NCBI RefSeq assembly: GCF_003018255.1
Contig: NZ_CP027440.1
DNA from: Escherichia coli
Lineage (GTDB): Bacteria > Pseudomonadota > Gammaproteobacteria > Enterobacterales > Enterobacteriaceae
Length of the DNA: 64,000 nt
Reading direction: 5' to 3' (one strand)
Shown piece by piece: positions 17,907-49,126 of the stretch. The position numbers and the translations under genes were made by a program. The notes beneath the pieces were generated by a model. It made no database searches, was not told the DNA's origin, and worked only from the letters and a program-made list of their open reading frames with translations. Every line of letters begins with the position of its first letter. The stretch's first letter is position 1.

Positions 17907-17919
17907 CGTTCAGGCTGGC

Positions 17920-19324: not shown

Positions 19325-19618
19325 TTAAACGATGCCCTGACTACGCAGCGCCGCCAGTTGCTGCATTAACATCTCTTCGATCAGCTCGCTACGGCTCATA
19401 TTGCGCGATTCCGCCAGCTCGTTCAGTGCCTCGACAGCTTCCGCGTTCAGCTTCAGTTCGACACGCTTAAGGCCACGTACTTTGTCGCGTTTTAGTTGGT
19501 TGCGTTTATTAATACGCAGCTGCTCATCGCGCGAAAGCGGATTAGTTTTCGGTCGTCCCGGTCGACGCTCGTGCGCGAACAGATCTAATGTCGTACGGTC
19601 CGTTTGTTCTTTGGCCAT
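19325..19618 (-). CDS. ybfE: Small ribbon-helix-helix-like protein YbfE
   Basis: Track ORF 19325..19687 trimmed to the ATG at 19618: [33 protein letters not shown]..., 97 aa. Confidence 0.75.
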
Positions 19619-19757
19619 GATCTTGGTGACTTCGGGGGAAACAATCAGCCAGGCGCCTGCCCGGATGGATAGCGCGCCATAATACATCAGCGCGATGAGT
19701 CACGCCAACGTCCACGCGCGGAAAGCGACGCGGACGCTGGGTTTTTAATCAGTTGCG

Positions 19758-20522
19758 TTAATCATTGAGATAGCGACGGATAGCGCGTAATACCGCATCC
19801 GGTTTTTCAGCATGGACCCAGTGACCCGCGCCTGCAATCACATGCGCCCGAGCCTGTGGAAATTGTGCCAGTAAATCATCACGGTACTGCTCGCTAACAT
19901 ACGGAGAATTGCCGCCAGGGATAAACAGGGTAGGATGATCCCATGCCGGGATTTTCTCCCAACCCACAATATGCGGATACTGATCCCACAATACTGGCAC
20001 GTTAAAGCGCCACTCCCCGTCAACAAAAGATTTCAACAGAAACTGAATCACCCCTTCTTCATTAAGATGCTGGCGCATTATTGCCGCTGCTTGCTGGCGT
20101 GTTTGTGCGTCTGATTCACTGACTGCGTTGATGGCCGCGAAAATCTCATCATGACGGCGAACGTGATAATCGACCGGCGCAATATCAATCGCCACCAGCT
20201 TGTCAATGCGATCGGGGGCTAGTGCAGTAAGAGCCATTACCGCTTTACCGCCCATGGAGTGACCGATAAATGTTGCTTTGTCGATCTGCTGTGCATCCAG
20301 GGTATCAACAAGATCCTGCGCCATCGCCGGGTAATTCATTACCGGATCTCTCGGTGAAAGACCGTGGTTACGCATATCAACCTGGATGATATTGTGATCG
20401 TTTACCAGATCGCGAGCCAGTACGCCAAGGTTGTCGAGGCTGCCAAACAGACCATGGACAAGAACGATGGGAGAATTATTGTGCTGGTTTTGTGCAGTTT
20501 GCGCGCGGATATTCAATTTCAT
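19758..20522 (-). CDS. ybfF: Alpha/beta-hydrolase esterase YbfF
   Basis: 254-aa ORF with the GHSMGG nucleophile elbow. Confidence 0.92.
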   Translation of the reverse strand: MKLNIRAQTAQNQHNNSPIVLVHGLFGSLDNLGVLARDLVNDHNIIQVDMRNHGLSPRDPVMNYPAMAQDLVDTLDAQQIDKATFIGHSMGGKAVMALTALAPDRIDKLVAIDIAPVDYHVRRHDEIFAAINAVSESDAQTRQQAAAIMRQHLNEEGVIQFLLKSFVDGEWRFNVPVLWDQYPHIVGWEKIPAWDHPTLFIPGGNSPYVSEQYRDDLLAQFPQARAHVIAGAGHWVHAEKPDAVLRAIRRYLND

Positions 20523-20706
20523 GGCAAAGTTCTTTTTTTCGCGTTGTCGGGTTAGGGTATTATGTTGACCATTGTGCCACAGGGCTGCAACAAATAAGGT
20601 TTATTCCGAGTTTTTCTGCAAGCCAGGCTTGACGCTATCCGCTGCCGGGATTTATTCATATACTCCTGGCGACTTGTATTCAGCTAAGACACTGCACTGG
20701 ATTAAG

Positions 20707-21252
20707 ATGAAAACGATTGAAGTTGATGATGAACTCTACAGCTATATTGCCAGCCACACTAAGCATATCGGCGAGAGCGCATCCGACATTTTACGGCGTA
20801 TGTTGAAATTTTCCGCCGCATCACAGCCTGCTGCTCCGGTGACGAAAGAGGTTCGCGTTGCGTCACCTGCTATCGTCGAAGCGAAGCCGGTCAAAACGAT
20901 TAAAGACAAGGTTCGCGCAATGCGTGAACTTCTGCTTTCGGACGAATACGCAGAGCAAAAGCGAGCGGTCAATCGCTTTATGCTGCTGTTGTCTACACTA
21001 TATTCTCTTGACGCCCAGGCGTTTGCCGAAGCAACGGAATCGTTGCACGGTCGTACACGCGTTTACTTTGCGGCAGATGAACAAACGCTGCTGAAAAATG
21101 GTAATCAGACCAAGCCGAAACATGTGCCTGGTACGCCGTATTGGGTGATCACCAACACCAACACCGGCCGTAAATGCAGCATGATCGAACACATCATGCA
21201 GTCGATGCAATTCCCGGCGGAATTGATTGAGAAGGTTTGCGGAACTATCTAA
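20707..21252 (+). CDS. seqA: Replication initiation negative regulator SeqA
   Basis: Track ORF 20572..21252 trimmed to the ATG at 20707: [35 protein letters not shown], 181 aa. Confidence 0.93.
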
Positions 21253-21277
21253 AACGTTGCAGACAAAGGACAAAGCA

Positions 21278-22918
21278 ATGGCAATCCACAATCGTGCAGG
21301 CCAACCTGCACAACAGAGTGATTTGATTAACGTCGCCCAACTGACGGCGCAATATTATGTACTGAAACCAGAAGCAGGGAATGCGGAGCACGCGGTGAAA
21401 TTCGGTACTTCCGGTCACCGTGGCAGTGCAGCGCGCCACAGCTTTAACGAGCCGCACATTCTGGCGATCGCTCAGGCAATTGCTGAAGAACGTGCGAAAA
21501 ACGGCATCACTGGCCCTTGCTATGTGGGTAAAGATACTCACGCCCTGTCCGAGCCTGCGTTCATTTCCGTACTGGAAGTGCTGGCAGCGAACGGCGTTGA
21601 TGTCATTGTGCAGGAAAACAATGGCTTCACTCCGACACCTGCCATTTCCAATGCCATTCTGGTTCACAATAAAAAAGGTGGCCCACTGGCAGACGGTATC
21701 GTGATTACACCGTCCCATAACCCGCCGGAAGATGGTGGTATCAAGTACAATCCGCCAAATGGTGGCCCGGCTGATACCAACGTCACTAAAGTGGTGGAAG
21801 ACAGAGCCAACGCACTGCTGGCTGATGGCCTGAAAGGCGTGAAGCGTATCTCCCTCGACGAAGCGATGGCATCCGGTCATGTGAAAGAGCAGGATCTGGT
21901 GCAGCCGTTTGTGGAAGGGCTGGCCGATATCGTTGATATGGCGGCGATTCAGAAAGCGGGCCTGACGCTGGGCGTTGATCCGCTGGGTGGTTCCGGTATC
22001 GAATACTGGAAGCGCATTGGCGAGTATTACAACCTCAACCTGACCATCGTTAACGATCAGGTCGATCAAACCTTCCGCTTTATGCACCTCGATAAAGACG
22101 GTGCGATCCGTATGGACTGCTCCTCCGAGTGTGCGATGGCGGGCCTGCTGGCACTGCGTGATAAGTTCGATCTGGCGTTTGCTAACGACCCGGATTATGA
22201 CCGTCACGGTATCGTCACTCCGGCAGGTTTGATGAATCCGAACCACTACCTGGCGGTGGCGATCAACTACCTGTTCCAGCATCGTCCGCAGTGGGGCAAA
22301 GATGTTGCTGTCGGTAAAACGCTGGTTTCATCTGCGATGATCGACCGTGTGGTCAATGATTTGGGCCGTAAGCTGGTAGAAGTACCGGTAGGTTTCAAAT
22401 GGTTTGTTGATGGTTTGTTCGATGGCAGCTTCGGCTTTGGCGGCGAAGAGAGTGCAGGCGCTTCCTTCCTGCGTTTCGACGGCACGCCGTGGTCCACCGA
22501 TAAAGACGGTATCATTATGTGTCTGCTGGCGGCGGAAATCACCGCTGTCACCGGTAAGAACCCGCAGGAACACTATAACGAACTGGCAAAACGCTTTGGT
22601 GCGCCGAGCTATAACCGTTTGCAGGCAGCAGCGACTTCCGCACAAAAAGCGGCGTTGTCTAAGCTGTCTCCGGAAATGGTGAGCGCCAGCACCCTGGCAG
22701 GTGACCCGATCACCGCGCGTCTGACGGCGGCACCGGGTAATGGCGCTTCTATCGGCGGTCTGAAAGTGATGACTGACAACGGCTGGTTCGCCGCGCGTCC
22801 GTCAGGCACGGAAGACGCATATAAGATCTACTGCGAAAGCTTCCTTGGTGAAGAACATCGCAAGCAGATTGAGAAAGAAGCGGTTGAGATTGTTAGCGAA
22901 GTTCTGAAAAACGCGTAA
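21278..22918 (+). CDS. pgm: Phosphoglucomutase
   Basis: Track ORF 21227..22918 trimmed to the ATG at 21278: [27 protein letters not shown]...; TPSHNP active-site motif present. Confidence 0.93.
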
Positions 22919-22931
22919 ACATATCAAATAA

Positions 22932-22965
22932 GAAAAAGGGCGGTCGGAAGATCGCCCTTTTTTGC
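22932..22965. terminator. Bidirectional terminator between pgm (+) and potE (-)
   Basis: A5, GGGCG-gtcggaagat-CGCCC hairpin, then T7; it is the only element in the 56-bp pgm-potE spacer. Confidence 0.7.
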
Positions 22966-22974
22966 TTTGCTTAA

Positions 22975-24294
22975 TTAACCGTGTTTATTTTTCAGTTCAA
23001 AGCGTGGTGAGACCAGACCATACAGTGTCCAACCGAGGAAGGTCACGATGGAACCGTATAGCATGGCTTCTTCCCCGGATGAGTACAGCGCATAAAAGCT
23101 GTACATCGCGCCAACAAAAGCAACAAAGTTTGCAACTTTCGCTTTTGAGGGGGGCACATTAGCGACCTTCTGAATAATGACTAATGCCGCCATTGACAGA
23201 ATATACGGAATGATATTGGTCACCACGGCCAGGTTAACCAGCACGTTGAACTGACTGTTCAGCGACGGGCTAATGGTCATCAGTGATAATCCGCTCTGGA
23301 TGATGACAATGGTCAGCATTCCCTGTACTGGTGCATCGACTTTGCTCACACGGGAGAAAATTTTCGGGAAGTACCCTTCATCGGCAGAAGATTTAAACAC
23401 CTGGGCAATGGTGAACTGCCAGCCAAGCAGCGAACCGCAGCAGGACATCACCATCAGCGCCATAATGACTTTACCCACTTCCGGCGTGAACATCTGCGCG
23501 AAGGCCAGACCAAATGGTGCCGTTGAATTTGCCAGCTCCATATTTGGCACAATCCCGGCAATCACGTTGGTGGAGACGATATAAATCACCGCCGCACCTA
23601 ACGTACCGCCAAGAACTGCAATCGGCACGTTACGTTCCGGGTTTTCAACTACTTCGGCGTTGGCACAGGCTGACTCCAGACCGAGGAAAGCCCACAACGT
23701 CATGGCGATGGAAGAACCTACAGCGCTAAAGAACGGCACATGGTGCGGGTTCCATGAGTTAGCGTATAGCGTCGGGCTAAACCAGAACCAGCCGATAATG
23801 CACAGACCGACGACCGGAATAATGACCCCCCACACAGTAATGCTACTGATTTGCCCGGTAATGCGCGCACCACCAAAGTTAGCCACGGTACAAATCCACA
23901 GCACTCCGATGGTCGCAAGACCAATCTGCACTGGCGACAAACTCGCGCCGAGCAGTTCGGTGCCGTAACCAACCGCCGAAATAGCAATCGCGACGTTAGC
24001 AATCAGCAGCGAGACACCGTAGGTGTAGTTCGCCATAAAGTTCCCGGATTTACCGAAAGCATACTCCGCATAACCGCCCATACCGCCTGATTTACGGCTG
24101 AACATACCGCATTTTGCGAATGCCCATGCCAGTGCCATTGAGCCTACGGCTGTCACCAGCCAGGAGATAATTGAGATTGTCCCAACTTCGGCAAGCTTTG
24201 TCGGCAGCATGATGATACCGGAGCCCATCATGTTGACCATCGTCAGTATGGTTAACTGAACGACGCCCATCTTATTCGATTTAGCCTGACTCAT
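22975..24294 (-). CDS. potE: Putrescine/ornithine antiporter
   Basis: 439-aa APC-family transporter ORF MSQAKSNKMGVVQLTILTMVNMMGSGIIMLPTKLAEVG... Confidence 0.95.
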   Translation of the reverse strand: MSQAKSNKMGVVQLTILTMVNMMGSGIIMLPTKLAEVGTISIISWLVTAVGSMALAWAFAKCGMFSRKSGGMGGYAEYAFGKSGNFMANYTYGVSLLIANVAIAISAVGYGTELLGASLSPVQIGLATIGVLWICTVANFGGARITGQISSITVWGVIIPVVGLCIIGWFWFSPTLYANSWNPHHVPFFSAVGSSIAMTLWAFLGLESACANAEVVENPERNVPIAVLGGTLGAAVIYIVSTNVIAGIVPNMELANSTAPFGLAFAQMFTPEVGKVIMALMVMSCCGSLLGWQFTIAQVFKSSADEGYFPKIFSRVSKVDAPVQGMLTIVIIQSGLSLMTISPSLNSQFNVLVNLAVVTNIIPYILSMAALVIIQKVANVPPSKAKVANFVAFVGAMYSFYALYSSGEEAMLYGSIVTFLGWTLYGLVSPRFELKNKHG

Positions 24295-26851: not shown

Positions 26852-27021
26852 TTAATTTACCTTTCCTGATGTGAATGAAGGTGAAGGTATTCTATCCAGG
26901 AAATACGGTTGAACTGTGAAGGTGATCAATAAAAAATGATCAATCTTAATTTATTTAATGATGAGCTTTTTACTCAGTAATATAAAATATTGAATTGTTA
27001 TTTTTGTGTGTTGTTTAAGAT

Positions 27022-27050
27022 AAAAAGCCGTATTTATTATTACGGCTTTA
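27022..27050. terminator. Terminator downstream of kdpE (end of the kdpFABCDE operon)
   Basis: A5, GCCGTA-tttattat-TACGGC hairpin, then TTTA; it sits 35 bp after the kdpE stop. Confidence 0.6.
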
Positions 27051-27084
27051 ATTAATAAAAGGCAGGATGTATTGAAATTAATAT

Positions 27085-27762
27085 TCAAAGCATAAACCGA
27101 TACCCAATACCGGTTTCAGTAATGAAATGGCGAGGCCGGGCCGGGTCCTGTTCCAGTTTTTGTCGCAGATGCCCCATATAAATACGCAAATAATGACTGT
27201 GTTCGACCGCGTTTGGCCCCCACACCTGGTTAAGGAGCTGGCGCTGGGTGAGCACTTTTCCCGCATTATTAAGCAACACTGCCAGCAGGCGGAACTCAAT
27301 CGGGGTGAGATGCACCTCTTCCTCGCCCCGATGGATCACACGAGCTGCTAAATCGACGGTAACATCGGAAAATTTCACCAGCGGATCGGGCGCGGCGGTG
27401 GCGGAGTGGCGACGTAAAGCGACGCGCAGACGGGCCTGCAATTCGCCAATGCCAAACGGCTTACTCAGATAATCATCCGCTCCGGCATCCAGCGCGGCGA
27501 TTTTGTCGCTCTCTTCGCTACGTGCGGAAAGCACAATCACCGGCACCGCGCTCCACTGGCGCAGGTCGCGGATAAACTCAATCCCATCACCATCGGGCAG
27601 GCCGAGATCGAGAATAATCAAATCTGGCTTACGGGTAGCCGCTTCCAGCAAGCCGCGTTGCAGCGTTTCGGCCTCAAAGACGCGCATACCGTCGCCTTCC
27701 AGCGCCGTGCGCAGAAAGCGACGAATAGCCTGTTCATCTTCAACAATCAGAACGTTTGTCAC
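27085..27762 (-). CDS. kdpE: Two-component response regulator KdpE (OmpR family)
   Basis: 225-aa ORF (M)[30 protein letters not shown]...; the start is GTG at 27762, overlapping the kdpD stop (GTGA). Confidence 0.93.
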   Translation of the reverse strand: MTNVLIVEDEQAIRRFLRTALEGDGMRVFEAETLQRGLLEAATRKPDLIILDLGLPDGDGIEFIRDLRQWSAVPVIVLSARSEESDKIAALDAGADDYLSKPFGIGELQARLRVALRRHSATAAPDPLVKFSDVTVDLAARVIHRGEEEVHLTPIEFRLLAVLLNNAGKVLTQRQLLNQVWGPNAVEHSHYLRIYMGHLRQKLEQDPARPRHFITETGIGYRFML

Positions 27763-30443
27763 ATATCCTCATGAAATTCTTCAAGTTCAGGAGCGGTTTG
27801 CTGGGGAAGTGTAACACGAAAACAGGCACCACCTTCCGGTCGGTTGAACGCGGTAATGGTGCCGCCGTGTACATCCACAATCGCCCGACAAATTGCCAGC
27901 CCAAGCCCTACACCCGGTACCGCCGACTCTTTATTCCCGCGAGCAAACTTATCAAATATCGTCTGCTCCTGGCCTGGCGGAAGACCGGGGCCGTTATCCC
28001 AGACATCCAGTTGTAGCTTCTCGCCCTCAACGTGGGCATCGATACCAATTTCGGCCTGCGCACCCGCGTATTTCACCGCGTTCTCCAGCAGATTAATCAG
28101 CACCCGTTCAAAGAGCGGCCCGTCAACGTGGATTAAGGTCAGCGGTTCTGGCAGAGAAAGATTGATAGGCGACGATAAACCCGGTTCCAGCATTTGCAGC
28201 GCGCTGCCGACCACTTCTTCCAGCGTTAACCACTCTTTCTTCAAATTAAAGCCGCCGGACTGAATTCGCGCCATATCGAGCAGATTATTCACCAGTCGGG
28301 TCGTGTTCAGCACATGCTGACGAATCTCGCTGGCCTGGCGGGCGTGGGGCGATCCTTCGCTTGCCAGATCGAGCGTTAAGATTTCTGCCTGACCGAACAG
28401 CACCGTGAGCGGCGTGCGTAAATCATGCGAAAGCGCCGCCAGCAGAGCGTTGCGGATCTGTTCACGTTCGCTTGCCATCCGCGCCTGTTCTTCGCTGGCG
28501 GTCAGCGTCAGCCGCTCAAGCGCATTGGCGACTAACAGCGTAAACGTCTCCAGCAGGCGCTGCTGTTCCGGGATCATCAACTGGCGCAGATTCCCCGGTT
28601 CCACCACCACCAGTCCGTAGGTTTTCTCGCCGCTTTTTAGCGGCAAAATCTGGTACGGTACACCGGGTAACGTGTCGGTGCCCGCGCCCGCAGGCAGACC
28701 TTTATCAAAACTCCACTGCGCGATGGCATCGTCCCACGGCGTCATTCCTTGCGGATGTGTTAACGGCTGCAATTTACCGTTGTCATCAGGCAGCAACACC
28801 TGGCTACGGGCATGAAACGTGGAGGCAATAAACTGTTCGCTGGTGGCGGCGATATCCTGCGAACTGCGGCCCACAGCCAGAGCTTTGGACATTTCATATA
28901 AGTGCCGTGTGCGTTGTTCGCGGTAACGGGCTACCCGCGCCTGATAACGCACGCCAGCAGTAAGGTTCCCGATCACCAGCCCGACGGTTAACATCACCGC
29001 GAAGGTCAGCAGATATTGCACATCAGAGACGGCGAGCGTGCCGCGTGGGGCGATAAAAAAGAGATCGAAACTCACCACATTAATGACGGTAGCAACCACC
29101 GAAGGCCAGCGTCCATAAAATAGCGCCACCACCACCACGCCAAGTAGATACAGCATCACCAGGTTGGCGGCATCAAACGCCATCAGCCACTGCATGGCAA
29201 TTAAGGTGATAACGGCGCATAACGCGGCGGCAACCACGCATCCCTGAATCTGTACCCGCCACTTGTCTTTAAAAGAGCGGCTATCCGGCGCGTTGTTAAT
29301 CGTGCGGGCGGGTGGTTCATCAAGCGCGACCAGCACCTGATCGAGATCGGGGGCGATGCGCGCCAGTCGGTCAGCAAACGTTTCCCGACGCCACCAGCGG
29401 CGCGAGGCTGGGCGACCGAGAATAATCTTGCCGAGATTATGCTCACGGGCGTAACGCACTACCGCTTTCTCTTCCGCTGGATTAGAAAGTGTTGCCGTCT
29501 CCGCGCCCAGCTCCTGCGCCAGACGTAAGGCGCTGAGAATTGCCCGACGTTTTTTCTCCGGTAAGCGATGCAGGGCAGGGGTTTCAACATACACCGCGTG
29601 CCAGACGCTACCCAGCCGTGACGCCAGCCGCGCCGCCGCGCGGACCAGTTTCTCACTACCAGTGTTATGGCCGATGCATAAAAGGATCGCGTCGCGCGTG
29701 TGCCAGACTTTCTCTTCGCCAGGATGCCCCCGCCAGGCGCGCATTTGCTCATCTACGCGATCGGCAGTACGGCGCAGTGCCAGTTCGCGCAGGGCGATCA
29801 GATTGCCTTTGCGGAAAAAATGTTCAATGGCGCGCTCCGCCTGCCCGGCAATATAGACTTTGCCTTCTTTCAGTCGCTGGCGCAGATCGTCCGGGGGCAA
29901 GTCCACCAGCACTACGTCGTCGGCGGCATCAAAAAAAGGATCGGGCACGGTTTCCCGAACCTGAATTCCGGTGACGCCGCTGACCACATCATTCAGGCTT
30001 TCCAGATGTTGAACGTTGACGGTAGTGAAAACATCAATGCCAGCTTCCAGCAGCTCTTCGATGTCCTGCCAGCGTTTGGGATGACGAGAACCTGGCGCAT
30101 TACTGTGCGCCAGTTCGTCCATTAAGATCAGTGCCGGACGGCGGGCGAGGGCGGCATCGAGATCAAACTCGCTGATGTGCCGCCCACGGTACGCCTGGCG
30201 TTTTAACGGCAGAACAGCCAGCCCTTCCAGCATTGCGGCGGTATCTTTCCGCCCGTGGGTTTCTACCACGCCAACCACAATATCCAGCCCTTGCGCCCGC
30301 AGTCGCTGGGCTTCTGCCAGCATTGCCCAGGTCTTGCCGACGCCTGCGCAGGCACCGAAGAAAACTTTCAGCTTCCCCCGATGCGGCGCGGCAGTTTGTT
30401 CCAGCAGACGATCGGGGTCGGGACGTAAGGGTTCGTTATTCAT
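27759..30443 (-). CDS. kdpD: Sensor histidine kinase KdpD
   Basis: Track ORF 27759..30476 trimmed to the ATG at 30443: [38 protein letters not shown]..., 894 aa. Confidence 0.93.
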
Positions 30444-31008
30444 CAAGCTTATCCAGCGCCAGATTGAGTTCGACAATGTTGACGACCGGCTGGCCGATAT
30501 ATTTCACCAGCGGTTGTTGGCTATATTTTGCGATCAGCTGCGTGAGCTGTTCAACGCTGAGATTACGCGCTTTCGCCACGCGTGGGATCTGCCAGGCCGC
30601 CGCTTGCGGGGTGATGTTATTGTCCAGCCCGCTTGCCGACGCCGTCACCAGTTCAACCGGAACGTTCGCGCTGGCATCCGGGTTAGCGGCCCGTAATGCG
30701 GCAACGCGTGCAGCGATTTGTTTATCCAGCTCCGGGTTACTAACCGCCAGATTGCTCCCGCCAGAAGCCTGTGGATTATAGGGCATTTCTGCCGTTGCCG
30801 ACGGGCGACCATGAAAATAGCCGTTGCCAGTAAAATTCTGCCCGATCAATGCCGAGCCGCGCACCGTATCACCTTCGCGAATCAACGAACCGTTGGCCTG
30901 CCAGGGAAACCACCATTGCCCCAGCGCGGTGGTCAGCAGCGGGTAAACACCGCCAGTAATCAGTAACAAAAAGAGAAATGTTGATAATGCCGGACGTAAT
31001 CCACGCAT
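30436..31008 (-). CDS. kdpC: Potassium-transporting ATPase subunit KdpC
   Basis: Track ORF 30436..31032 trimmed to the ATG at 31008 (GAGG 8 nt upstream): [27 protein letters not shown]..., 190 aa. Confidence 0.88.
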
Positions 31009-31016
31009 GGTAAACC

Positions 31017-33065
31017 TCACACCAGACCGCAAACGGTCAGCAGTAAATCAATGACTTTGATACCAATAAACGGCACCAGCAGCCCACCCAGACCGTAAAT
31101 CCATAAGTTACGGCGCAACATGGCAGAAGCGGTAAGCGGTTTATAACTCACGCCTTTTAACGCCAGGGGAATCAAAAAGACGATAATCAAGGCGTTGAAA
31201 ATGACCGCACTGAGAATGGCGGAGTCGGGCGAATGCAGGCGCATGATGTTCAGCGCATTTAACTGCGGATACGTTGCCGCGAACGCCGCCGGAATAATGG
31301 CGAAGTATTTCGCCACATCGTTGGCAATGCTGAAGGTGGTCAGCGAGCCACGGGTCATCAGCATCTGTTTGCCAATATGCACCACCTCGATCAACTTGGT
31401 CGGGTTAGAGTCGAGATCCACCATATTGCCCGCTTCTTTCGCCGCCTGAGTACCGGAGTTCATCGCTACCGCGACATCTGCCTGCGCCAGCGCCGGAGCA
31501 TCATTGGTGCCGTCGCCGGTCATCGCCACCAAACGGCCTTCCGCCTGATACTGACGAATTAACGCCAGCTTGGCCTCCGGTGTCGCTTCGGCGAGAAAAT
31601 CATCGACACCCGCTTCCGCAGCAATGGCGGCGGCAGTCAGACGGTTATCGCCGGTAATCATCACCGTTTTAATGCCCATTTTGCGCAGCTGGGCGAAGCG
31701 CTCTTTAATACCGCCTTTGACGATATCTTTCAGCGCAATAACGCCCAGCACACGAGAACCTTCCACCACCACCAGCGGCGTGGCCCCCTGACGCGCAACC
31801 TGATCGACTTTTTGATCAACATCGACAGGGAAGTGACCACCGTTAGCCTCAACATGGCGGCGAATGGCATCGACAGAACCTTTACGGATCATGCGGTTGT
31901 CGATATTGATCCCGCTCATTCGACTTTGCGCAGTAAACGGTACAAAAGTGGCGTGAAGCGACTGCACATCGCGCTCGCGCAGGTTAAAGCGCTGCTTGGC
32001 GAGGATCACAATACTGCGGCCTTCCGGCGTTTCGTCGGCCAGCGAAGCCAGTTGTGCTGCGTCGGCCAGCGTTTTTTCCTCTACGCCCTGCGCAGGGATA
32101 AACTCTGATGCCTGACGGTTACCGAGGGTGATGGTGCCAGTTTTATCCAGCAGCAGGACGTCCACGTCGCCCGCCGCTTCAACTGCACGCCCGCTGGTGG
32201 CAATCACATTCGCGCCCAACATCCGGCTCATCCCGGCGACGCCGATCGCTGACAACAGGCCGCCAATAGTGGTTGGGATCAGACAGACCAACAGCGCCAC
32301 CAGTACCGTTACGCTGACTGCATTACCACCCCATGCGGAAAACGGCCACAGCGTGGCGGTTGCCAGTAAAAAGACGATAGTCAGGGCAATCAGCAGGATG
32401 GTCAGGGCAATCTCGTTCGGCGTTTTGCGTCGCTGCGCGCCTTCCACCATCGCGATCATCCGATCCAGAAATGTCTCGCCGGGGTTAACGCTGCACTCAA
32501 TCACCAGCCAGTCAGAAAGAATACGCGTGCCGCCAGTGACGGAGGCAAAATCGCCGCCGGATTCACGGATCACCGGAGCCGATTCCCCGGTGATGGCGCT
32601 TTCATCGACCGATGCGCCGCCTTCAATGACTTCACCATCGCAGGGGATAATATCGCCAGCTTCTACCAGTACGATATCGCCTTTACGCAGTTGATCTGCG
32701 GGAACTTTGTCCGCCGCAGCGCCATATTTCGGCTCACGCAGCTTGCGGGCAAAGGCAGTTTTTTTCACCCCTTTCAGACTATTGGCTTGCGCTTTACTGC
32801 GGCCTTCTGCCAGCGCCTCGGCGAAATTAGCGAACAGTACGGTGACCCACAGCCAGCCGCTAATTGCCGCGCTAAACAGCGCATTGCCAGGCATCGCGCC
32901 GCTTGCCATTGCAATGCTAATAAAGGTGGTTAACAGACTGCCGATCCAGACGATAAACATCACTGGATTACGCCATTGCGCCTGCGGGTTTAATTTTTTC
33001 ACCGCTTCTTTCAGCGCCTGAACGACAAGTGTTGGTTCGAATAGCGCCAGTTGTTTACGACTCAT
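31017..33065 (-). CDS. kdpB: Potassium-transporting P-type ATPase subunit KdpB
   Basis: 682-aa ORF with DKTGT phosphorylation motif and TGDGTND hinge motif. Confidence 0.95.
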
Positions 33066-33087
33066 ATTCAGTGCTCACTCAATATCA

Positions 33088-34761
33088 TCAGGAGAGATAT
33101 TCCGCCACCGGACCAAGCGCCAGGGCAGGGATAAAGGTCAGTGCGCCAACCAGCAACACGGTGCCGATTAACAGGCCAACAAACAGCGGGCCGTGCGTTG
33201 GCAGCGTGCCGGAGCTGGCGGGCTGGCTCTTTTTACTCACCAGCGAACCGGCAATTGCCATCACCGGGATAATTACCCCGAAGCGACCGACAAACATGCA
33301 GAACGCCAGCAAACAGTTCCAGAATGGAGAGTTGGCGCTTAATCCGGCAAAGGCGCTGCCGTTGTTGTTAGCGGCGGATGACACGGCGTACAGCACTTCG
33401 CTAAAACCATGCGGGCCAGGGTTGAGCATGGCGCTACGTCCGGCGTCGGTCATCATTGCCAGCGCCGCGCCCATCAGCGCCAGCGTTGGGGTGACCAGAA
33501 TCGCCAGCGCGGTCAGTTTCATCTCGCGTACGTCGATTTTTTTACCCAGATATTCCGGTGTACGACCAATCATCAGCCCAGCAATAAACACCGCCAGCAG
33601 GACAAACAGCATCATGCCGTAAAGACCAGAACCGACACCGCCGAACACCACTTCACCAATTTGCATCAGCCACATCGGCACCATGCCACCAAGAGCGGTA
33701 AACGAATCATGCATCGCAATCACCGCGCCACAGGAAGCCGCCGTAGTCACGACCGCAAACAGGCTACTGACCAGCACGCCGAAACGACTCTCTTTACCTT
33801 CCATATTGATGCTGCTGTCCGCGCCCAGTGCCAGCAGATGCGGATTACCCTGAACTTCTGCCCACATCACCACGCCTGTGCAGATGATAAAAATCACTGA
33901 CATCGCCCACAGCAACATGCGCCCCTGACGGCGATCGCCCGCCACTTCGCCAAAGGCAAAGCACAGCGCTGTTGGGATCAAGAAGATCGCCAGCATCTGC
34001 ACGAAGTTGGTCAGTGCGGTTGGGTTTTCAAACGGATGCGACGAGTTGGCATTAAAGAAGCCACCGCCGTTAGTGCCGAGCATCTTGATCGCTTCCTGAG
34101 AAGCTACAGGCCCCATGGGTAACAGCTGTTGCGCTCCTTCAACGGTATTCACCGCCTGATAGGGCAGAAAGTTTTGCAGCGCACCTTGTTGAATAAAAAA
34201 CAATGCGATCAACAACGCCACAGGGACTAGCACCCATAACGTGATGCGTAGCAGATCGACCCAGGCATTCCCGAGTGTGCTCATGCTCTGGCGGGTAAAT
34301 GCACGTATGAGGGCAAAAATCACCGCAATCCCGCTGGCGGCAGAAAGAAAGTTTTGCACCGTTAAGCCCGCCATCTGGCTGAAATAGCTCAACGTGGTTT
34401 CACCGCTGTAAGATTGCCAGTTGGTATTTGTGACAAAGCTGACGGCGGTATTCAGCGCCAGATCCCACGACAGTCCTGGCAACTGCTGTGGATTAAGCGG
34501 CAGATAGTGCTGACCGAGCAACATAAAAAACAGCACCGCCAGCCCCAGTATATTCAGGCCAAGAATGGCTGAGAGATACTGCTTCCAGTTCATCTCGCGG
34601 TCAGAGACGCCAAGCGCGCGAAAAAGTACGCGCTCAACGCCCGTCGTACCGGGAAGAGGAATGTCATTAATCAGCCGCGCCAGCCCGCTGCCTAAAGGAC
34701 GCGCCAGCACCATTAACACCAGTAAAAACGTGGCAATCAGTAAGAACCCTTGCGCAGCCAT
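33088..34761 (-). CDS. kdpA: Potassium-transporting ATPase channel subunit KdpA
   Basis: Track ORF 33088..34905 trimmed to the ATG at 34761: [32 protein letters not shown]..., 557 aa. Confidence 0.92.
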
Positions 34762-34850
34762 CAGAACGCCTCCGCATTGATCAGGGCATAAACCAGATAA
34801 CCCAGTAATAAAAACACCAGCAACACGCCGGCTATCACGCCTGCACTCAC
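34761..34850 (-). CDS. kdpF: Small membrane subunit KdpF (29 aa)
   Basis: GTG at 34850 gives (M)[28 protein letters not shown]; its stop overlaps the kdpA ATG by 1 nt. Confidence 0.65.
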
Positions 34851-34923
34851 AGTGCACCTCCAGTGGCCTAAAAGTGATACCGGAAGAGTAGAATTCTGGC
34901 TGCAAAGATTTCGCAAAAATCTG

Positions 34924-34953
34924 CGGGCGGGGTGTAAAAAAAGTATAAAAATG
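34924..34953 (-). promoter_or_regulatory. KdpE binding site of the kdpFABC promoter
   Basis: Minus strand reads CATTTTTATACTTTTTTTACACCCCGCCCG, which I recall as the KdpE-protected sequence, about 75-105 bp upstream of the kdpF start. Confidence 0.55.
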
Positions 34954-35162
34954 GCAAAAGCCATGATTTAACTAATGTTTAGTATTAATTTAACCTTTGT
35001 GTAACTTAATTACGGTATGAATGTAAATAAACCATCAATAAGCAAAAATAAGTGGTCGGATGAGTAGTAAAATTACACAAAAGGCGGTACTATTTTCATC
35101 AGATAAACAAATTCATTTTTCCGGTGCTATTCACCGGGTAGATACAAAAGGGGGAGAAAAGT

Positions 35163-35369
35163 ATGGAACTCTACAGAGAATATCCTGCATGGCTTATCTT
35201 TTTACGCCGTACTTATGCGGTTGCAGCGGGCGTTCTGGCGCTGCCTTTCATGCTTTTCTGGAAAGACCGCGCCCGCTTTTACAGCTACCTGCACCGCGTC
35301 TGGTCGAAAACCAGCGATAAACCGGTGTGGATGGATCAGGCCGAAAAGGCGACTGGTGATTTTTACTGA
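35163..35369 (+). CDS. ybfA: Small conserved protein YbfA (DUF2517)
   Basis: 68-aa [71 protein letters not shown]. Confidence 0.85.
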
Positions 35370-35391
35370 TTGCTGAGTTCTGAATACATTG

Positions 35392-35427
35392 AAAACCGCC
35401 AGCGGAAACGCTGGCGGTTTTTTTTGT
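35392..35427 (+). terminator. ybfA rho-independent terminator
   Basis: AACCGCCAGCG-gaaa-CGCTGGCGGTT hairpin followed by T9. Confidence 0.7.
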
Positions 35428-35613: not shown

Positions 35614-38600
35614 ATGAGCGGAAAACCGGCGGCGCGTCAGGGCGACATGACGCAGTATGGCGGTAGCATTGTTCAGGATTCAGCCGGGGTACGTATTGGT
35701 GCCCCCACCGGCGTGGCCTGTTCGGTGTGCCCCGGCGGGGTGACGTCCGGCCATCCGGTCAATCCGCTGCTCGGTGCGAAGGTCCTTCCCGGCGAAACCG
35801 ACCTTGCCCTGCCCGGCCCGCTGCCGTTCATCCTCTCCCGCACCTACAGCAGTTACCGGACAAAAACGCCCGCGCCGGTGGGGAGCCTCGGCCCCGGCTG
35901 GAAAATGCCTGCGGATATCCGCTTACAGCTGCGCGATAACACACTGATACTCAGTGATAACGGCGGCAGAAGCCTGTATTTTGAGCACCTGTTTCCCGGT
36001 GAGGACGGTTACAGCCGCAGCGAGTCACTCTGGCTGGTGCGCGGCGGCGTGGCGAAACTGGATGAAGGTCACCGGCTGGCCGCACTCTGGCAGGCGCTGC
36101 CGGAAGAGCTTCGCCTGAGTCCGCATCGTTATCTGGCGAAGAACAGTCCGCAGGGGCCGTGGTGGGTATTCGGCTGGTGTGAGCGGGTGCCGGAGGCGGA
36201 TGAGGTGCTGCCTGCGCCGCTGCCGCCGTACCGGATACTGACCGGGCTGGTGGACCGCTTCGGGCGCACACAGACGTTTCACCGTGAGGCTGGCGGCGAA
36301 TTCAGCGGCGAAATCACCGGCGTGACCGACGGCGCAGGCCGTCACTTCCGGCTGGTACTGACCACGCAGGCGCTGCGGGCAGAAGAGGCCCGGCAGAAGG
36401 CCACTTCCGGCGGGACGGAACCGTCCGCTTTTCCTGATACCCAGCCGGACTACACGGAATATGGCCGGGACAACGGTATCCGTCTGTCTGCCGTGTGGCT
36501 GACGCACGACCCGGAATACCCGGAGAATTTACCTGCCGCGCCGCTGGTACGCTATGGCTGGACGCCGCGCGGCGAACTGGCGGCGGTGTATGACCGCAGC
36601 AATACACAGGTGCGCAGCTTTACTTACGATGATAAATACCGGGGCCGGATGGTGGCGCACCGTCACACGGGCCGGCCGGAAATCCGTTACCGTTACGACA
36701 GTGACGGGCGGGTGACAGAACAGCTAAACCCGGCAGGCTTAAGCTACACGTATCAGTATGAGAAAGACCACATCACCATCACCGACAGCCTGGACCGCCG
36801 TGAAGTGCTGCACACGCAGGGCGAAGGCGGGCTGAAGCGGGTGGTGAAAAAGGAACACGCGGACGGCAGCGTCACGCAGAGTCAGTTTGACGCGGTGGGC
36901 AGGCTTAAGGCACAGACGGATGCCGCAGGCCGGACGACTGAGTACAGCCCGGATGTGGTGACCGGACTCATCACGCGCATCACCACGCCGGATGGCAGGG
37001 CATCGGCGTTTTACTATAACCACCACAGCCAGTTAACGTCAGCCACCGGGACTGACGGGCTGGAGTTGCGCAGGGAATATGATGAATCCGGCCGTCTGAT
37101 TCAGGAAACTGCCCCTGACGGCGATATCACCCGCTACCGTTATGATAATCTACACAGTGAATTACCCTGCGCAACGGAAGATGCCACCGGCAGCCGGAAA
37201 ACCATGACATGGAGCCGTTACGGTCAGTTGCTGACCGTCACTGACTGTTCCGGTTATGTAACCCGTTATGACCATGACCGTTTTGGTCAGATGACGGCGG
37301 CGCACCGCGAGGAAGGGCTGAGTCAGTATCGCGCATACGACAGCCGTGGACAGTTAATTGCGGTGAAAGACATGCAGGGCCATGAAACGCGGTATGAATA
37401 CAACGCCGCCGGTGACCTGACCGCCGTCATTGCCCCGGACGGCAGCAGAAACGGGACACAGTACGATACGTGGGGAAAGGCCATCCGTACCACGCAGGGT
37501 GGTCTGACGCGCAGTATGGAATACGATGCTGCCGGACGGGTCATCCGCCTGACCAGTGAAAACGGCAGCCACACCACCTTCCGTTACGATGTACTCGACC
37601 GGCTGATACAGGAAACCGGCTTTGACGGCCGCACACAGCGTTATCATCACGACCTGACCGGTAAACTTATCCGCAGCGAGGATGAGGGGCTGGTCACCCA
37701 CTGGCACTATGACGAAGCAGACCGCATCACGCACCGCACCGTGAAGGGTGAAACCGCAGAACAGTGGCGGTACGACGAACGCGGCTGGCTGACACAAATC
37801 AGCCATCTCAGCGAAGGCCACCGGGTGACGGTGCATTACGGGTATGATGAGAAAGGCCGCCTGACCGGTGAGCGCCAGACGGTACATCACCCGCAGACGG
37901 AAGCACTGCTCTGGCAGCATGAGACCAGACATGCGTACAACGCGCAGGGGCTGGCGAACCGCTGTATACCGGACAGCCTGCCCGCCGTGGAATGGCTGAC
38001 TTACGGCAGCGGCTGGCTGGCAGGCATGAAACTCGGCGACACACCGCTGGTGGATTTCACCCGTGACCGCCTGCACCGGGAAACGCTGCGCAGCTTCGGC
38101 CGTTATGAACTCACCACCGCTTATACCTCTGCCGGGCAGTTACAGAGCCAGCACCTGAACAGCCTGCAGTATGACCGCGATTACACCTGGAACGACAACG
38201 GCGAACTCATCCGCATCAGCAGCCCGCGACAGACCCGGAGTTACAGCTACAGCGACTCCGGCAGGCTGACCGGCGTCCACACCACCACCTCAAATCTGGA
38301 TATCCGCATCCCGTATGCCACGGACCCGGCAGGTAACCGCCTGCCCGACCCGGAGCTGCACCCGGACAGCACCCTCAGCATGTGGCCGGATAACCGTATC
38401 GCCCGTGACGCGCACTATCTTTACCAGTATGACCGTCACGGCAGGCTGACAGAGAAAACCGACCTCATCCCGGAAGGGGTTATCCGCACGGATGATGAGC
38501 GGACTCACCGGTACCATTACGACAGCCGGCACCGGCTGGTGCACTACACGCGGACACAATATGCAGAGCCGCTGGTCGAAAGTCGCTATCTTTACGACCC

Positions 38601-39300
38601 GCTGGGGCGCAGGGTGGCAAAACGGGTATGGCGGCGTGAACGGGACCTGACGGGCTGGATGTCGCTGTCACGGAAACCGGAAGTGACCTGGTACGGCTGG
38701 GACGGCGACCGGCTGACCACAATACAGAACGACAGAACCCGCATCCAGACGGTTTATCAGCCGGGGAGCTTCACGCCACTCATCAGGGTCGAAACTGCCA
38801 CCGGTGAGCTGGCGAAAACGCAGCGCCGCAGCCTGGCGGATGCGCTTCAGCAGTCCGGCGGTGAAGACGGTGGCAGTGTGGTGTTCCCGCCGGTGCTGGT
38901 GCAGATGCTCGACCGGCTGGAAAGTGAAATCCTGGCTGACCGGGTGAGTGAGGAAAGCCGCCGCTGGCTGGCATCGTGCGGCCTGACGGTGGAGCAGATA
39001 CAAAACCAGATGGACCCGGTGTACACGCCGGCGCGAAAAATCCACCTGTACCACTGCGACCATCGCGGCCTGCCGCTGGCGCTTGTCAGCACGGAAGGGG
39101 CAACAGAATGGTGCGCAGAATACGATGAATGGGGCAACCTGCTGAATGAAGAGAACCCGCACCAGCTGCAGCAGCTCATCCGCCTGCCGGGTCAGCAGTA
39201 TGATGAGGAGTCCGGCCTGTATTACAACCGCCACCGCTATTATGACCCGCTGCAGGGGCCAGGGAAAGATCACGTAACGCTGCTTTTTTGTACTAAATAA
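35614..39300 (+). CDS. rhsC: Rhs-family protein (RhsC-like core), C-terminally truncated: no DPxGL cleavage motif and no toxin domain
   Basis: 1228-aa GC-rich ORF with a PAAR-like N-terminal motif (KPAARQGD) and many YD repeats; it ends ...[11 protein letters not shown] plus 13 unrelated residues ([13 protein letters not shown]) and a stop. Confidence 0.85.
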
Positions 39301-42279: not shown

Positions 42280-43944
<1,665 letters not shown>

Positions 43945-44031
43945 TTAATATGTCAAAAGATTGGCTATCGACGAACAGGCGAGGTAACGCTATGTTAACG
44001 GTGTAGCTATCAGAATACGGAAGGCGCGAAG

Positions 44032-44775
44032 ATGAAAAACACCGAACTGGAACAACTGATTAACGAAAAACTGAACAGCGCGGCGATTAGTGATTACGCG
44101 CCGAATGGTTTGCAGGTGGAAGGCAAAGAGACGGTGCAAAAAATTGTTACCGGTGTCACCGCCAGCCAGGCTTTGCTCGATGAAGCGGTGCGTCTGGGCG
44201 CGGATGCGGTCATTGTGCATCATGGCTACTTCTGGAAAGGTGAATCTCCGGTCATTCGCGGAATGAAGCGTAACCGTTTAAAAACGTTGCTGGCGAATGA
44301 TATCAACCTGTATGGCTGGCATCTGCCCCTGGACGCGCATCCGGAGCTGGGTAATAACGCACAACTGGCGGCGTTACTGGGGATCACGGTCATGGGCGAA
44401 ATTGAGCCGTTGGTGCCGTGGGGCGAACTGACCATGCCTGTGCCGGGACTGGAACTGGCCTCCTGGATTGAAGCGCGTCTGGGACGTAAGCCGTTATGGT
44501 GTGGCGATACCGGACCTGAGGTGGTCCAGCGCGTCGCCTGGTGCACGGGCGGCGGGCAAAGTTTTATCGATAGCGCCGCGCGTTTTGGCGTGGATGCTTT
44601 TATTACTGGCGAAGTTTCTGAACAGACCATTCATTCAGCCCGCGAGCAGGGATTGCATTTTTATGCTGCGGGTCACCATGCCACTGAACGCGGTGGTATT
44701 CGCGCGTTGAGCGAGTGGCTGAATGAAAATACCGATCTTGATGTGACCTTTATTGATATTCCTAATCCTGCATAA
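44032..44775 (+). CDS. ybgI: NIF3-family metal-binding protein YbgI
   Basis: 247-aa ORF MKNTELEQLINEKLNSAAISDYAPNGLQVEGKETVQKIVTGVTAS... Confidence 0.92.
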   Translation: MKNTELEQLINEKLNSAAISDYAPNGLQVEGKETVQKIVTGVTASQALLDEAVRLGADAVIVHHGYFWKGESPVIRGMKRNRLKTLLANDINLYGWHLPLDAHPELGNNAQLAALLGITVMGEIEPLVPWGELTMPVPGLELASWIEARLGRKPLWCGDTGPEVVQRVAWCTGGGQSFIDSAARFGVDAFITGEVSEQTIHSAREQGLHFYAAGHHATERGGIRALSEWLNENTDLDVTFIDIPNPA

Positions 44776-44797
44776 CGAATAATCAGAGGGATCGAAA

Positions 44798-45454
44798 GTG
44801 CAACGAGCGCGTTGTTATCTGATAGGTGAAACGGCGGTAGTGCTGGAGCTGGAACCGCCGGTGACGCTGGCTAGCCAGAAACGGATCTGGCGACTGGCGC
44901 AGCGTCTGGTGGATATGCCGAATGTGGTTGAAGCCATTCCCGGCATGAACAATATCACGGTGATTTTACGTAATCCTGAGTCGCTGGCGCTGGATGCCAT
45001 AGAGCGTTTGCAACGCTGGTGGGAGGAGAGTGAGGCGCTGGAGCCGGAGTCTCGCTTTATTGAAATTCCGGTGGTTTACGGTGGCGCAGCCGGACCGGAT
45101 TTGGCGGTGGTCGCGGCGCATTGTGGATTGAGCGAAAAACAGGTTGTTGAATTGCACTCCTCCGTGGAATACGTGGTCTGGTTTTTAGGTTTTCAACCGG
45201 GCTTCCCGTATCTCGGGAGTTTGCCGGAACAACTACACACGCCACGGCGCGCTGAACCGCGCTTGCTCGTTCCGGCAGGTTCTGTCGGGATCGGCGGGCC
45301 GCAGACTGGTATTTATCCGTTGGCAACGCCGGGTGGCTGGCAGTTGATTGGTCATACCTCACTCAGCCTGTTTGATCCGGCGCGTGACGAACCCATCTTA
45401 TTACGTCCGGGAGACAGCGTGCGCTTTGTACCGCAGAAGGAGGGAGTATGCTGA
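44798..45454 (+). CDS. pxpB: 5-oxoprolinase subunit B (YbgJ)
   Basis: 218-aa ORF starting at GTG: (M)[36 protein letters not shown]... Confidence 0.9.
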
Positions 45455-46380
45455 AGATTATTCGTGCGGGTATGTATACCACTGTGCAGGATGGCGGTCG
45501 TCACGGTTTTCGCCAGTCGGGTATCAGCCACTGCGGCGCACTGGATATGCCTGCGCTGCGCATTGCTAACCTACTGGTGGGTAATGACGCCAATGCCCCC
45601 GCGCTGGAGATCACGCTCGGTCAGTTAACGGTTGAGTTCGAAACTGATGGGTGGTTTGCTCTGACGGGGGCCGGTTGCGAAGCGCGGCTGGATGATAACG
45701 CCGTCTGGACCGGCTGGCGATTGCCGATGAAAGCAGGCCAGCGTTTAACGCTTAAACGCCCGCAGCACGGGATGCGCAGTTATCTGGCGGTCGCGGGTGG
45801 TATTGATGTTCCGCCGGTAATGGGGTCATGCAGCACCGATCTCAAAGTGGGGATTGGCGGGCTGGAAGGCCGTTTACTGAAGGATGGTGACCGACTCCCG
45901 ATTGGCAAATCGAAGCGTGATTTTATGGAAGCGCAGGGCGTTAAACAGCTGCTGTGGGGCAACCGCATTCGCGCCTTGCCGGGGCCGGAATATCATGAGT
46001 TCGATCGCGCCTCGCAGGATGCATTCTGGCGTTCGCCCTGGCAGCTTAGCTCGCAAAGTAACCGAATGGGCTATCGCTTACAGGGGCAAATTTTAAAACG
46101 CACCACCGATCGCGAACTGTTATCTCACGGTTTGTTACCGGGCGTGGTGCAGGTGCCACATAACGGGCAGCCGATTGTGTTGATGAACGACGCACAGACC
46201 ACCGGTGGTTATCCGCGTATTGCCTGTATCATTGAGGCTGATATGTACCATCTGGCGCAAATTCCGCTCGGTCAGCCGATTCATTTTGTCCAGTGTTCAC
46301 TGGAAGAGGCACTGAAAGCACGGCAAGATCAACAACGTTATTTCGAACAATTAGCGTGGCGGCTGCACAATGAAAATTGA
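45448..46380 (+). CDS. pxpC: 5-oxoprolinase subunit C (YbgK)
   Basis: 310-aa [36 protein letters not shown]...; overlaps pxpB by 7 nt. Confidence 0.9.
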
Positions 46381-47104
46381 CCTGAACGCCGATCTGGGCG
46401 AAGGCTGCGCCAGCGACGCAGAGCTATTAACGCTGGTTTCCTCTGCCAATATTGCCTGTGGATTTCATGCAGGCGATGCGCAAACCATGCAGGCTTGCGT
46501 GCGTGAAGCCATAAAAAATGGTGTTGCGATTGGCGCTCACCCGAGTTTTCCCGACAGGGAAAATTTTGGGCGCAGCGTCATGCAGCTGCCGCCAGAAACC
46601 ATTTACGCCCAGACGCTGTATCAAATTGGCGCGCTGGCAACGATTGCCCGTGCGCAAGGCGGTGTTATGCGTCATGTCAAACCTCACGGCATGTTATACA
46701 ACCAGGCAGTGAAAGAGGCACAACTGGCAGACGCCATCGCCAGAGCGGTATACGCTTGCGATCCGGCATTGATTCTCGTCGGACTGGCGGGAAGCGAGCT
46801 GATTCGTGCAGGCAAGCAATATGGCCTGACAACGCGCGAGGAAGTGTTTGCCGATCGCGGTTACCAGGCTGACGGCTCGCTGGTGCCGCGAAGCCAGCCA
46901 GGCGCGTTGATTGAAGACGAAGAACAGGCGCTGGCGCAAACGTTGGAGATGGTGCAACACGGCAGAGTCAAAAGTATCACCGGCGAATGGGCAACGGTCA
47001 CGGCGCAAACGGTCTGCCTGCATGGCGACGGCGAGCACGCACTGGCATTCGCCCGCCGACTACGCTCTACATTTGCCGAAAAGGGGATTGTTGTCGCAGC
47101 ATAA
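46370..47104 (+). CDS. pxpA: 5-oxoprolinase subunit A (LamB/YcsF family, YbgL)
   Basis: 244-aa [39 protein letters not shown]...; overlaps pxpC by 11 nt. Confidence 0.9.
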
Positions 47105-47139
47105 CCCCGTTTAATAAAGAATGAAAAAAGGATATCACC

Positions 47140-47931
47140 ATGCCTGAAGGCCCGGAGATCCGCCGTGCAGCGGATAACCTGGAGGCGGCGATCAAAGGCA
47201 AACCACTAACTGATGTCTGGTTTGCCTTCCCGCAGTTAAAACCTTATCAATCACAACTTATCGGTCAACACGTTACCCATGTGGAAACGCGTGGTAAGGC
47301 GTTGTTAACTCATTTTTCCAACGACTTAACGCTCTACAGCCATAATCAGCTTTACGGCGTCTGGCGCGTGGTTGATACCGGCGAAGAGCCGCAGACTACG
47401 CGAGTATTGCGGGTAAAACTGCAAACGGTTGACAAAACCATTCTGCTTTATAGCGCCTCGGATATTGAGATGTTGACGCCGGAACAACTGATCACGCATC
47501 CGTTTTTACAACGAGTCGGCCCCGATGTGCTGGATCCGAATCTGACGCCGGAGGTGGTAAAGGAACGGTTATTGTCGCCGCGCTTTCGTAACCGTCAGTT
47601 TGCTGGATTACTGCTCGATCAGGCGTTTCTGGCTGGGCTTGGCAATTATTTGCGGGTGGAGATCCTCTGGCAGGTTGGGTTGACTGGAAATCATAAAGCG
47701 AAAGATCTCAGTGCGGCGCAACTGGATGCACTCGCACACGCGTTACTGGATATTCCTCGATTTTCCTACGCTACGCGGGGGCAGGTGGATGAGAATAAGC
47801 ATCATGGGGCGCTGTTTCGCTTTAAGGTTTTTCATCGTGATGGCGAACTGTGCGAACGCTGTGGCGGCATCATTGAGAAAACCACGCTGTCATCTCGCCC
47901 GTTTTACTGGTGCCCTGGCTGTCAGCACTAG
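47140..47931 (+). CDS. nei: Endonuclease VIII (DNA glycosylase/AP lyase)
   Basis: 263-aa [31 protein letters not shown]... (N-terminal PEGPE catalytic motif), C-terminal zinc finger CERCG...CPGCQ. Confidence 0.95.
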
Positions 47932-49118: not shown

Positions 49119-49126
49119 ATGATAAA

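Follow-up and report, generated by a model that had tools for sequence, protein, structure and literature searches.

Start codons, gene overlaps and the KdpE box of a kdpFABCDE locus in an Escherichia coli chromosome

Identity and layout of the locus

Two GTG start codons, three overlapping gene junctions and a recognizable KdpE site, all within a single minus-strand operon, raise the question of whether this kdp locus departs from the reference operon of E. coli or simply repeats it. The locus lies in a 64,000-nt stretch of E. coli chromosome, referred to here as the window, and we consider it virtually certain (probability about 0.97) that the region is the canonical E. coli kdpFABCDE locus, encoded on the minus strand; no evidence contradicting this identification was found. 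A sequence-only reading had already named the operon and gathered its features under positions 34761-35000, an interval that holds kdpF and its promoter only: the other features that it described lie at 31003-31008 (the start of kdpC), 30436-30443 and 27759-27762.

Gene coordinates were taken from the RefSeq annotation of a near-identical genome (NZ_AP045072.1) and mapped 1:1 onto the window, where the operon runs from 34850 down to 27085 on the minus strand. It opens with kdpF (34761-34850; 29 codons, GTG start, TGA stop) and continues with kdpA (33088-34761; 557 aa, ATG start), with kdpB, which encodes the P-type ATPase subunit (31017-33065; 682 aa, ATG start 22 nt past the kdpA stop), and with kdpC (30436-31008; 190 aa, ATG start 8 nt past the kdpB stop), before ending in the genes for the sensor kinase, kdpD (27759-30443; 894 aa, ATG start), and the response regulator, kdpE (27085-27762; 225 aa, GTG start). 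The divergent gene ybfA lies upstream, and speFL-speF lies downstream. Among 5,426 complete E. coli genomes, 5,423 matched an 8.2-kb kdp query, and all six genes from kdpF to kdpE are annotated beneath the match.

The identity of the operon is borne out by its products, all six of which score above the cut-offs of NCBIfam equivalogs, have the same lengths as their K-12 counterparts and are 97-99.6% identical to them. KdpF, a single-helix subunit, matched NF011332 over residues 1-29 of 29 (74.3 bits; cut-off 56), KdpA, which is the channel-like subunit that binds K+, matched TIGR00680 over its full length (1001.8 bits; cut-off 387.7), and KdpB and KdpC matched TIGR01497 (1276.8 bits; cut-off 527.9) and TIGR00681 (333.7 bits; cut-off 152.55), respectively. 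KdpD, a sensor kinase made up of the KdpD N-terminal domain, a membrane segment and a histidine-kinase core, aligned to NF007793 with residues 1-894 on profile positions 1-895 (1835.7 bits; cut-off 1123), and KdpE, a response regulator of the OmpR/PhoB type, to NF007820 over residues 1-225 of 225 (487.4 bits; cut-off 325). Because these alignments begin at residue 1 or 2 of each protein, they provide independent support for the annotated starts.

Residue by residue, KdpA agrees with K-12 at 549 of 557 positions, KdpB at 677 of 682 (with the DKTGT phosphorylation motif seen at residues 304-313), KdpD at 890 of 894 (with the H-box LSHDLRTP at residues 671-678) and KdpE at 224 of 225. Matching PDB entries are 6HRA, 5MRW and 4KNY, the chains of which are depositor sequences and not measured N-termini: KdpF is identical to chain D of 6HRA at 28 of 29 residues (T7A), KdpC to chain C of the same entry at 185 of 190, and KdpE matches 4KNY (E 7.7e-146). 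A 29-residue KdpF was reported by Gassel et al. (1999), as cited in PMC10723866, to co-purify with the complex as one of its subunits. From the roughly 99% protein identity to the characterized K-12 system, the operon is predicted to serve high-affinity K+ uptake under K+ limitation.

The same agreement holds for the architecture of the operon. In K-12 MG1655 (b4513 and b0698-b0694), gene order, gene lengths and stops are those of the window, as are the start codons (GTG, ATG, ATG, ATG, ATG and GTG, from kdpF to kdpE), the spacers (22 and 8 nt), the overlaps (1, 8 and 4 nt), the KdpE box and ribosome-binding sites, the divergent ybfA and the downstream speFL-speF. The alignment with K-12 that had been proposed as a check on the sequence-only reading is collinear over 8,078 nt, with zero indels and with junctions that are identical base for base. 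All of the architectural features are thus found in K-12 too, and the strain is set apart only by a handful of substitutions, KdpC S2R and KdpF T7A among them. Nor are the starts and overlaps unusual when set against chance. GTG is the start codon of about 14% of E. coli genes, a frequency at which a set of six genes has a chance of about 20% of containing at least two such starts, and junctions at which stop and start overlap by 1 or 4 nt rank with the most frequent in bacterial operons. The features of the locus are already known, being those of the reference operon and junctions of common kinds.

For a wider comparison, species-representative genomes were scanned with the back-translated N-terminus of KdpA, a pattern that leaves the sequence upstream unconstrained. 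This yielded 49 loci, 47 of which have a kdpF-type junction and which, with the window, make a set of 48 sequences. The two loci without such a junction, L013 (Desulfovibrio) and L052 (Clostridia), were set aside as off-target; another, L047, is labelled Chryseobacterium and looks enterobacterial.

The KdpE box and the kdpF promoter

The KdpE-protected site that the sequence-only reading placed upstream of kdpF is indeed present: the sequence CATTTTTATACTTTTTTTACACCCCGCCCG is identical to that of K-12 and contains the published half-sites (PMC3264566). The box occupies 34933-34949 on the minus strand and consists of two direct repeats, S1 (TTTATA, 34949-34944) and S2 (TTTACA, 34938-34933), separated by the spacer CTTTT. 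Narayanan et al. identified TTTATA and TTTACA, at a spacing of 5 bp, as the KdpE half-sites S1 and S2 within a footprint extending from -72 to -50 (PMC3264566). For the identical K-12 sequence, phosphorylated KdpE has been shown to bind the box and to activate kdpFABC (PMC3264566, PMC5934670), and activated KdpE produced a single peak in genomic SELEX, located in the spacer between kdpF and ybfA (PMC5934670). In nearly all of the 48 enterobacterial loci of our survey, the box and the kdpF GTG are a fixed distance apart.

This arrangement resembles the sites of OmpR/PhoB-family activators, such as the pho box, in which two direct-repeat half-sites bound by a head-to-tail dimer lie upstream of a weak -35 element, and KdpE itself, like the regulators of that family, combines a receiver domain with a winged-helix domain. 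It differs from them in that its half-sites are KdpE-specific (TTTATA/TTTACA) and in that it is reported to be a single-target regulator (PMC5934670).

Back-calculation from the published footprint (-72 to -50; PMC3264566) would place the start of transcription at about 34880, and our tentative -10 and -35 assignments for the kdpF promoter are likewise derived from these footprint coordinates. A conserved block, GATTTTTGCGAAATCTTTGC (34901-34920, minus strand), lies between the KdpE box and the putative -10 region; it would correspond to the -35 and spacer region of an activator-dependent promoter, and in 43 unique enterobacterial sequences its columns are at least 95% identical. The putative -10 region differs by one base change relative to K-12 (TACTCT vs TACCCT). 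A scan of 34700-35200 for consensus sigma-70 promoters found none, a result that is expected of an activator-dependent promoter and that is not positive evidence for one. Two terminator-like matches in the same interval are not credible: one falls within kdpF, and the second owes its T-rich tail to the KdpE box, next to which it lies.

Start codons and gene junctions

The starts and overlaps that had been read from the letters alone hold throughout the operon. On the minus strand, kdpF begins at the GTG at 34850-34848 (GTG AGT GCA GGC), which is situated 4-6 nt past the Shine-Dalgarno sequence GGAGGTG (34861-34855, minus strand), and the A at 34761 belongs both to its TGA stop (34763-34761) and to the ATG of kdpA, such that the 1-nt overlap reads TGATG within TTCTGATGGCT. 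The ribosome-binding site of kdpA, GGAGG, is contained in codons 26-28 of kdpF (gcGGAGGcg). Further downstream, kdpC, ending in GAT GAA TAA, and kdpD, beginning ATG AAT AAC, have in common the 8 nt ATGAATAA (30443-30436, minus strand), which include the TAA stop of the former and the ATG of the latter. The GTG of kdpE (27762-27760) falls within GTGA, the TGA of which is the stop of kdpD, giving an overlap of 4 nt (27762-27759) between a gene that ends ATG TGA and one that begins GTG ACA AAC. An in-frame TGA is located three codons upstream of this GTG, which is hence the first possible start of kdpE, and the receiver domain starts immediately past it.

Most of these features recur in the survey. 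All 48 sequences have a GTG at codon -29 relative to kdpA that is preceded by GGAGG, and in seven of them an in-frame stop stands directly before the GTG; the 1-nt overlap of kdpF and kdpA is also present in 48 of 48 (as TGATG, or once as TAATG). Every one of the 17 loci long enough to show the start of kdpE has its GTG in GTGA. The kdp operons of other Enterobacteriaceae, among them Citrobacter, Salmonella, Klebsiella, Raoultella, Leclercia, Trabulsiella and Kluyvera, share with the window the kdpF GTG with its GGAGG, the 1-nt overlap, the KdpE box at fixed distance, the GTGA of kdpE and the divergent ybfA. They differ from it at the junction of kdpC and kdpD, where only Escherichia loci have the 8-nt overlap; in the other genera the two genes are separated by 0-10 nt or overlap by 1 or 4 nt. 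Four loci (L021, L037, L038 and L044), as well as the kdpE junctions of L020, L040 and L049, were left out of the overlap counts on account of implausibly large gaps, which are likely to stem from frameshifts, assembly errors or simple ORF tracking. For kdpF and kdpE, the annotated GTG starts gain comparative support from the survey, and the Escherichia-specific overlap of kdpC and kdpD is a minor point at the level of annotation.

Other start codons are open to both kdpF and kdpD. The longest open reading frame over kdpF in a mechanically generated list extends from an ATG at 34964 to 34761 (67 codons), and an in-frame GTG at codon 5, seen in the window and in many relatives, offers a start downstream. 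The ATG, however, is situated upstream of both the KdpE box and the inferred start of transcription, which would leave it off the kdp mRNA, it is missing in many genera, and seven loci have a stop directly before the GTG at codon -29. Several genera (e.g., L014, L015 and L018) lack the codon-5 GTG, whereas the codon-1 GTG is accompanied by GGAGG in every sequence surveyed and the NCBIfam model covers all 29 residues of KdpF. We therefore regard a start of kdpF at either of these codons as scarcely credible.

A start of kdpD at a TTG upstream of its ATG is also highly improbable, if slightly less so. In-frame TTGs are found 1 and 11 codons upstream, at 30446, immediately preceding the ATG, and at 30476, from which the mechanical open reading frame of 905 codons begins; either would lengthen the overlap with kdpC, to 11 or 41 nt, and the ribosome-binding match ahead of the ATG (TAAG) is weak. 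Yet the KdpD equivalog model aligns from the first residue of the annotated protein, the ATG is common to the K-12 annotation, and in other genera kdpD begins at an aligned ATG that follows the kdpC stop and allows no extension upstream. The 8-nt overlap holds if the annotated ATG of kdpD is accepted, as we accept it here together with the GTG start of kdpF. Direct data on the initiation sites of kdpF and kdpE, by ribosome profiling or N-terminal sequencing, were not found in the searchable literature.

Taken with the annotated starts, the promoter suggests how the operon might be expressed. Under K+ limitation, the kinase KdpD would phosphorylate KdpE, a dimer of which would occupy TTTATA-N5-TTTACA some 60 bp upstream of the start of transcription and would recruit RNA polymerase to a promoter without good -35 and -10 elements. 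The resulting polycistronic mRNA would be translated with tight coupling: kdpF would be initiated at its GTG by means of a strong GGAGG, kdpA from a ribosome-binding site in the last codons of kdpF, with its ATG sharing a base with the kdpF stop, and kdpD and kdpE from starts that lie within the gene before them or at its end. Stop and start overlap at the junctions of kdpF with kdpA (TGATG), of kdpC with kdpD (ATGAATAA) and of kdpD with kdpE (GTGA), and since terminating ribosomes can reinitiate at such overlaps, the output of neighbouring genes could be linked. On the strength of these junction sequences, we infer that the overlaps probably couple the translation of neighbouring genes; a full-text literature search found no paper on translational coupling in kdp. 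The weak GTG start codons, which are kept across genera, may hold initiation at a modest rate and thereby tune expression; that their strict conservation at kdpF and kdpE represents a selected tuning of subunit or regulator dosage is a lesser reading.

Strain background and neighbouring sequences

The single departure from K-12 that the sequence-only reading had pointed out, a KdpC beginning MRGL instead of MSGL, is present as described: the gene opens ATG CGT GGA TTA against ATG AGT GGA TTA in K-12, codon 2 (CGT) being located at 31005-31003. Its attribution to a non-K-12 strain background is also upheld, the coding sequences being 96.61% identical to those of K-12, a divergence of 3.4%. The codon changes comprise 232 that are synonymous and 24 that are non-synonymous, and they are spread evenly along the operon, at 14-24 per 500 nt. 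The 24 substitutions are distributed over KdpF (T7A), KdpA (8), KdpB (5), KdpC (5: S2R, I12L, V28A, L97Q and S115N), KdpD (4) and KdpE (T123A). The differences from K-12 are ordinary allelic variation under purifying selection.

Some observations might nonetheless be taken to mean that the divergent allele, including KdpC S2R, arose by adaptive change or by horizontal replacement of the operon and does not merely reflect a neutral background. Over the operon, identity to the window reaches 99% or more in only 3 of 5,423 genomes and 97.6% in the next best, and the exact 57-mer around codon 2 of kdpC is rare, occurring in 59 of 5,405 E. coli genomes; moreover, CGT at this codon is found in E. 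albertii and in two other species representatives, the representative of cluster E69 having Arg2. But the flanks behave in the same way. In the 8.2 kb from chiP to potE upstream, four genomes are at least 99% identical and the next best, LF82, reaches 98.9%, and the downstream flank has nine genomes that are at least 99% identical: this shared pattern indicates that the lineage is under-sampled and that the kdp allele is not special. The changes, besides, are overwhelmingly synonymous and, running evenly along the operon, mark no mosaic boundary, and residue 2 of KdpC is absent from PDB entry 5MRW, the KdpC chain of which aligned only from residue 4. Import from other Escherichia species was rejected, identity over the operon being 95.3% to E69, 92.6-92.8% to E. 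albertii and 93.3% to E. whittamii, as against 97.6% to mainstream E. coli, values too low for E. albertii or E69 to have been its source. Adaptive change or replacement of the operon is accordingly very unlikely. We retain the view of a neutral strain background, in which KdpC Arg2 is a minority natural allele and the window a standard segment of the E. coli chromosome from an under-sampled lineage.

The spacer between kdpF and ybfA shows conservation of its own. Its length is nearly constant across genera, at about 300-312 nt and mostly 305-312 nt, and two long blocks within it (approximately 34966-35013 and 35051-35100) have at least 95% column identity across genera and are as invariant as the KdpE box over about a dozen enterobacterial genera. 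We found no described role for either block, and an Rfam scan of 34700-35400 (E<=1) returned only a spurious miRNA match and thus no known RNA family in the spacer. That the blocks constitute an undescribed regulatory input, acting either as a further site for a regulator or as a leader RNA and linking the conserved divergent ybfA to kdp control, is a doubtful proposition, and they are the only element perhaps worth a small follow-up. A small hairpin in the ybfA leader, at approximately 35122-35138, has one covarying pair that takes three pair types across genera.

The adjacent Rhs locus differs from its closest relatives by some 2.85 kb of missing sequence, the break, at approximately 39259, falling at a 190-bp repeat. 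This truncation stems from recent recombination or from a collapse of the assembly. The truncated open reading frame ends 13 codons past YYDPLQG, without a toxin tip, and the junction is essentially unique among the 5,426 complete genomes.

Conserved sequence between kdpF and ybfA

The region separating kdpF, the first gene of the minus-strand kdpFABCDE operon (27085-34850), from its divergent neighbour ybfA spans 34851-35162, and its arrangement is stable: across the compared enterobacterial loci the divergent neighbour is always ybfA, and the length of the spacer is nearly constant, mostly 305-312 nt. Within it are two long non-coding blocks, at 34966-35013 and 35051-35100, with the minus-strand readings TAATTAAGTTACACAAAGGTTAAATTAATACTAAACATTAGTTAAAT and TAATTTTACTACTCATCCGACCACTTA, the second block running on to about 35100. 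Both blocks show at least 95% per-column identity among roughly 39 enterobacterial species representatives, a level of conservation equal, in these representatives, to that of the KdpE box (34933-34949, minus strand). An Rfam scan of 34700-35400 at E ≤ 1 returned no family match beyond a spurious miRNA. The two blocks could belong to the ybfA promoter or leader, or could form a site for an additional regulator.

The 5′ leader of ybfA also contains a hairpin, CCGGTG-CTATT-CACCGG (35122-35138, plus strand), which precedes the start of ybfA by about 25-40 nt. One of its stem pairs occurs as three pair types across genera (UA in 16, CG in 8 and AU in 5), and a second alternates between GU and GC, which hints that the structure of the leader RNA is conserved. 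Taken as a whole, the alignment gives a weak covariation term (-1.19 kcal/mol).

On the kdpF side of the spacer, the putative -10 hexamer of the kdp promoter, assigned by inference to 34885-34890 on the minus strand, reads TACTCT and differs by one base from TACCCT, the likely -10 hexamer of the K-12 promoter; the two match TATAAT at an equal number of positions.

One of the species-representative loci retrieved with a back-translated KdpA N-terminus, L047 (CACSKA010000002.1, 2545-2955), lies on a contig labelled Chryseobacterium sp. 18061 and has the ybfA-kdpF-kdpA order typical of enterobacteria, along with the KdpE box and the GTG start. Either contamination or a wrong label on the assembly in that collection is the probable explanation.

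Lineage of the source strain

Measured by nucleotide identity, the source strain is a member of an under-sampled E. coli lineage. Of about 5,400 complete genomes, just 3-9 reach 99% identity or more in the kdp segment (27000-35200) and the flanks 16000-24200 and 43100-51300, and the next-best identity falls to 97.6% for the kdp segment and to 98.9% (LF82 and NRG 857C) for the upstream flank. The nearest records, JNE112863 and JNE23-011, are human isolates from Japan; neither is identical to the window, JNE112863 differing by 39 mismatches over 39 kb.

A shortened Rhs gene

The Rhs gene adjoining ybfA, in the rhsC position (35614-39300, plus strand), has 1,228 codons compared with 1,399 in the two closest genomes. 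The locus lacks about 2.85 kb that both contain, a segment encoding the original Rhs C-terminal tip and, downstream of it, genes whose annotated products are a hypothetical protein, an NTF2-fold immunity protein and a DUF6258 protein. The open reading frame stops 13 residues past YYDPLQG and is therefore without a toxin domain. The deletion point is a 190-bp repeat (39069-39259) common to the Rhs gene and a downstream orphan Rhs fragment, and the loss reflects either recent homologous recombination or assembly collapse. A 581-nt probe across the junction was at least 80% covered in only 2 of 5,426 genomes, and in the one of them that was listed this coverage consisted of two pieces spread across 772 nt.
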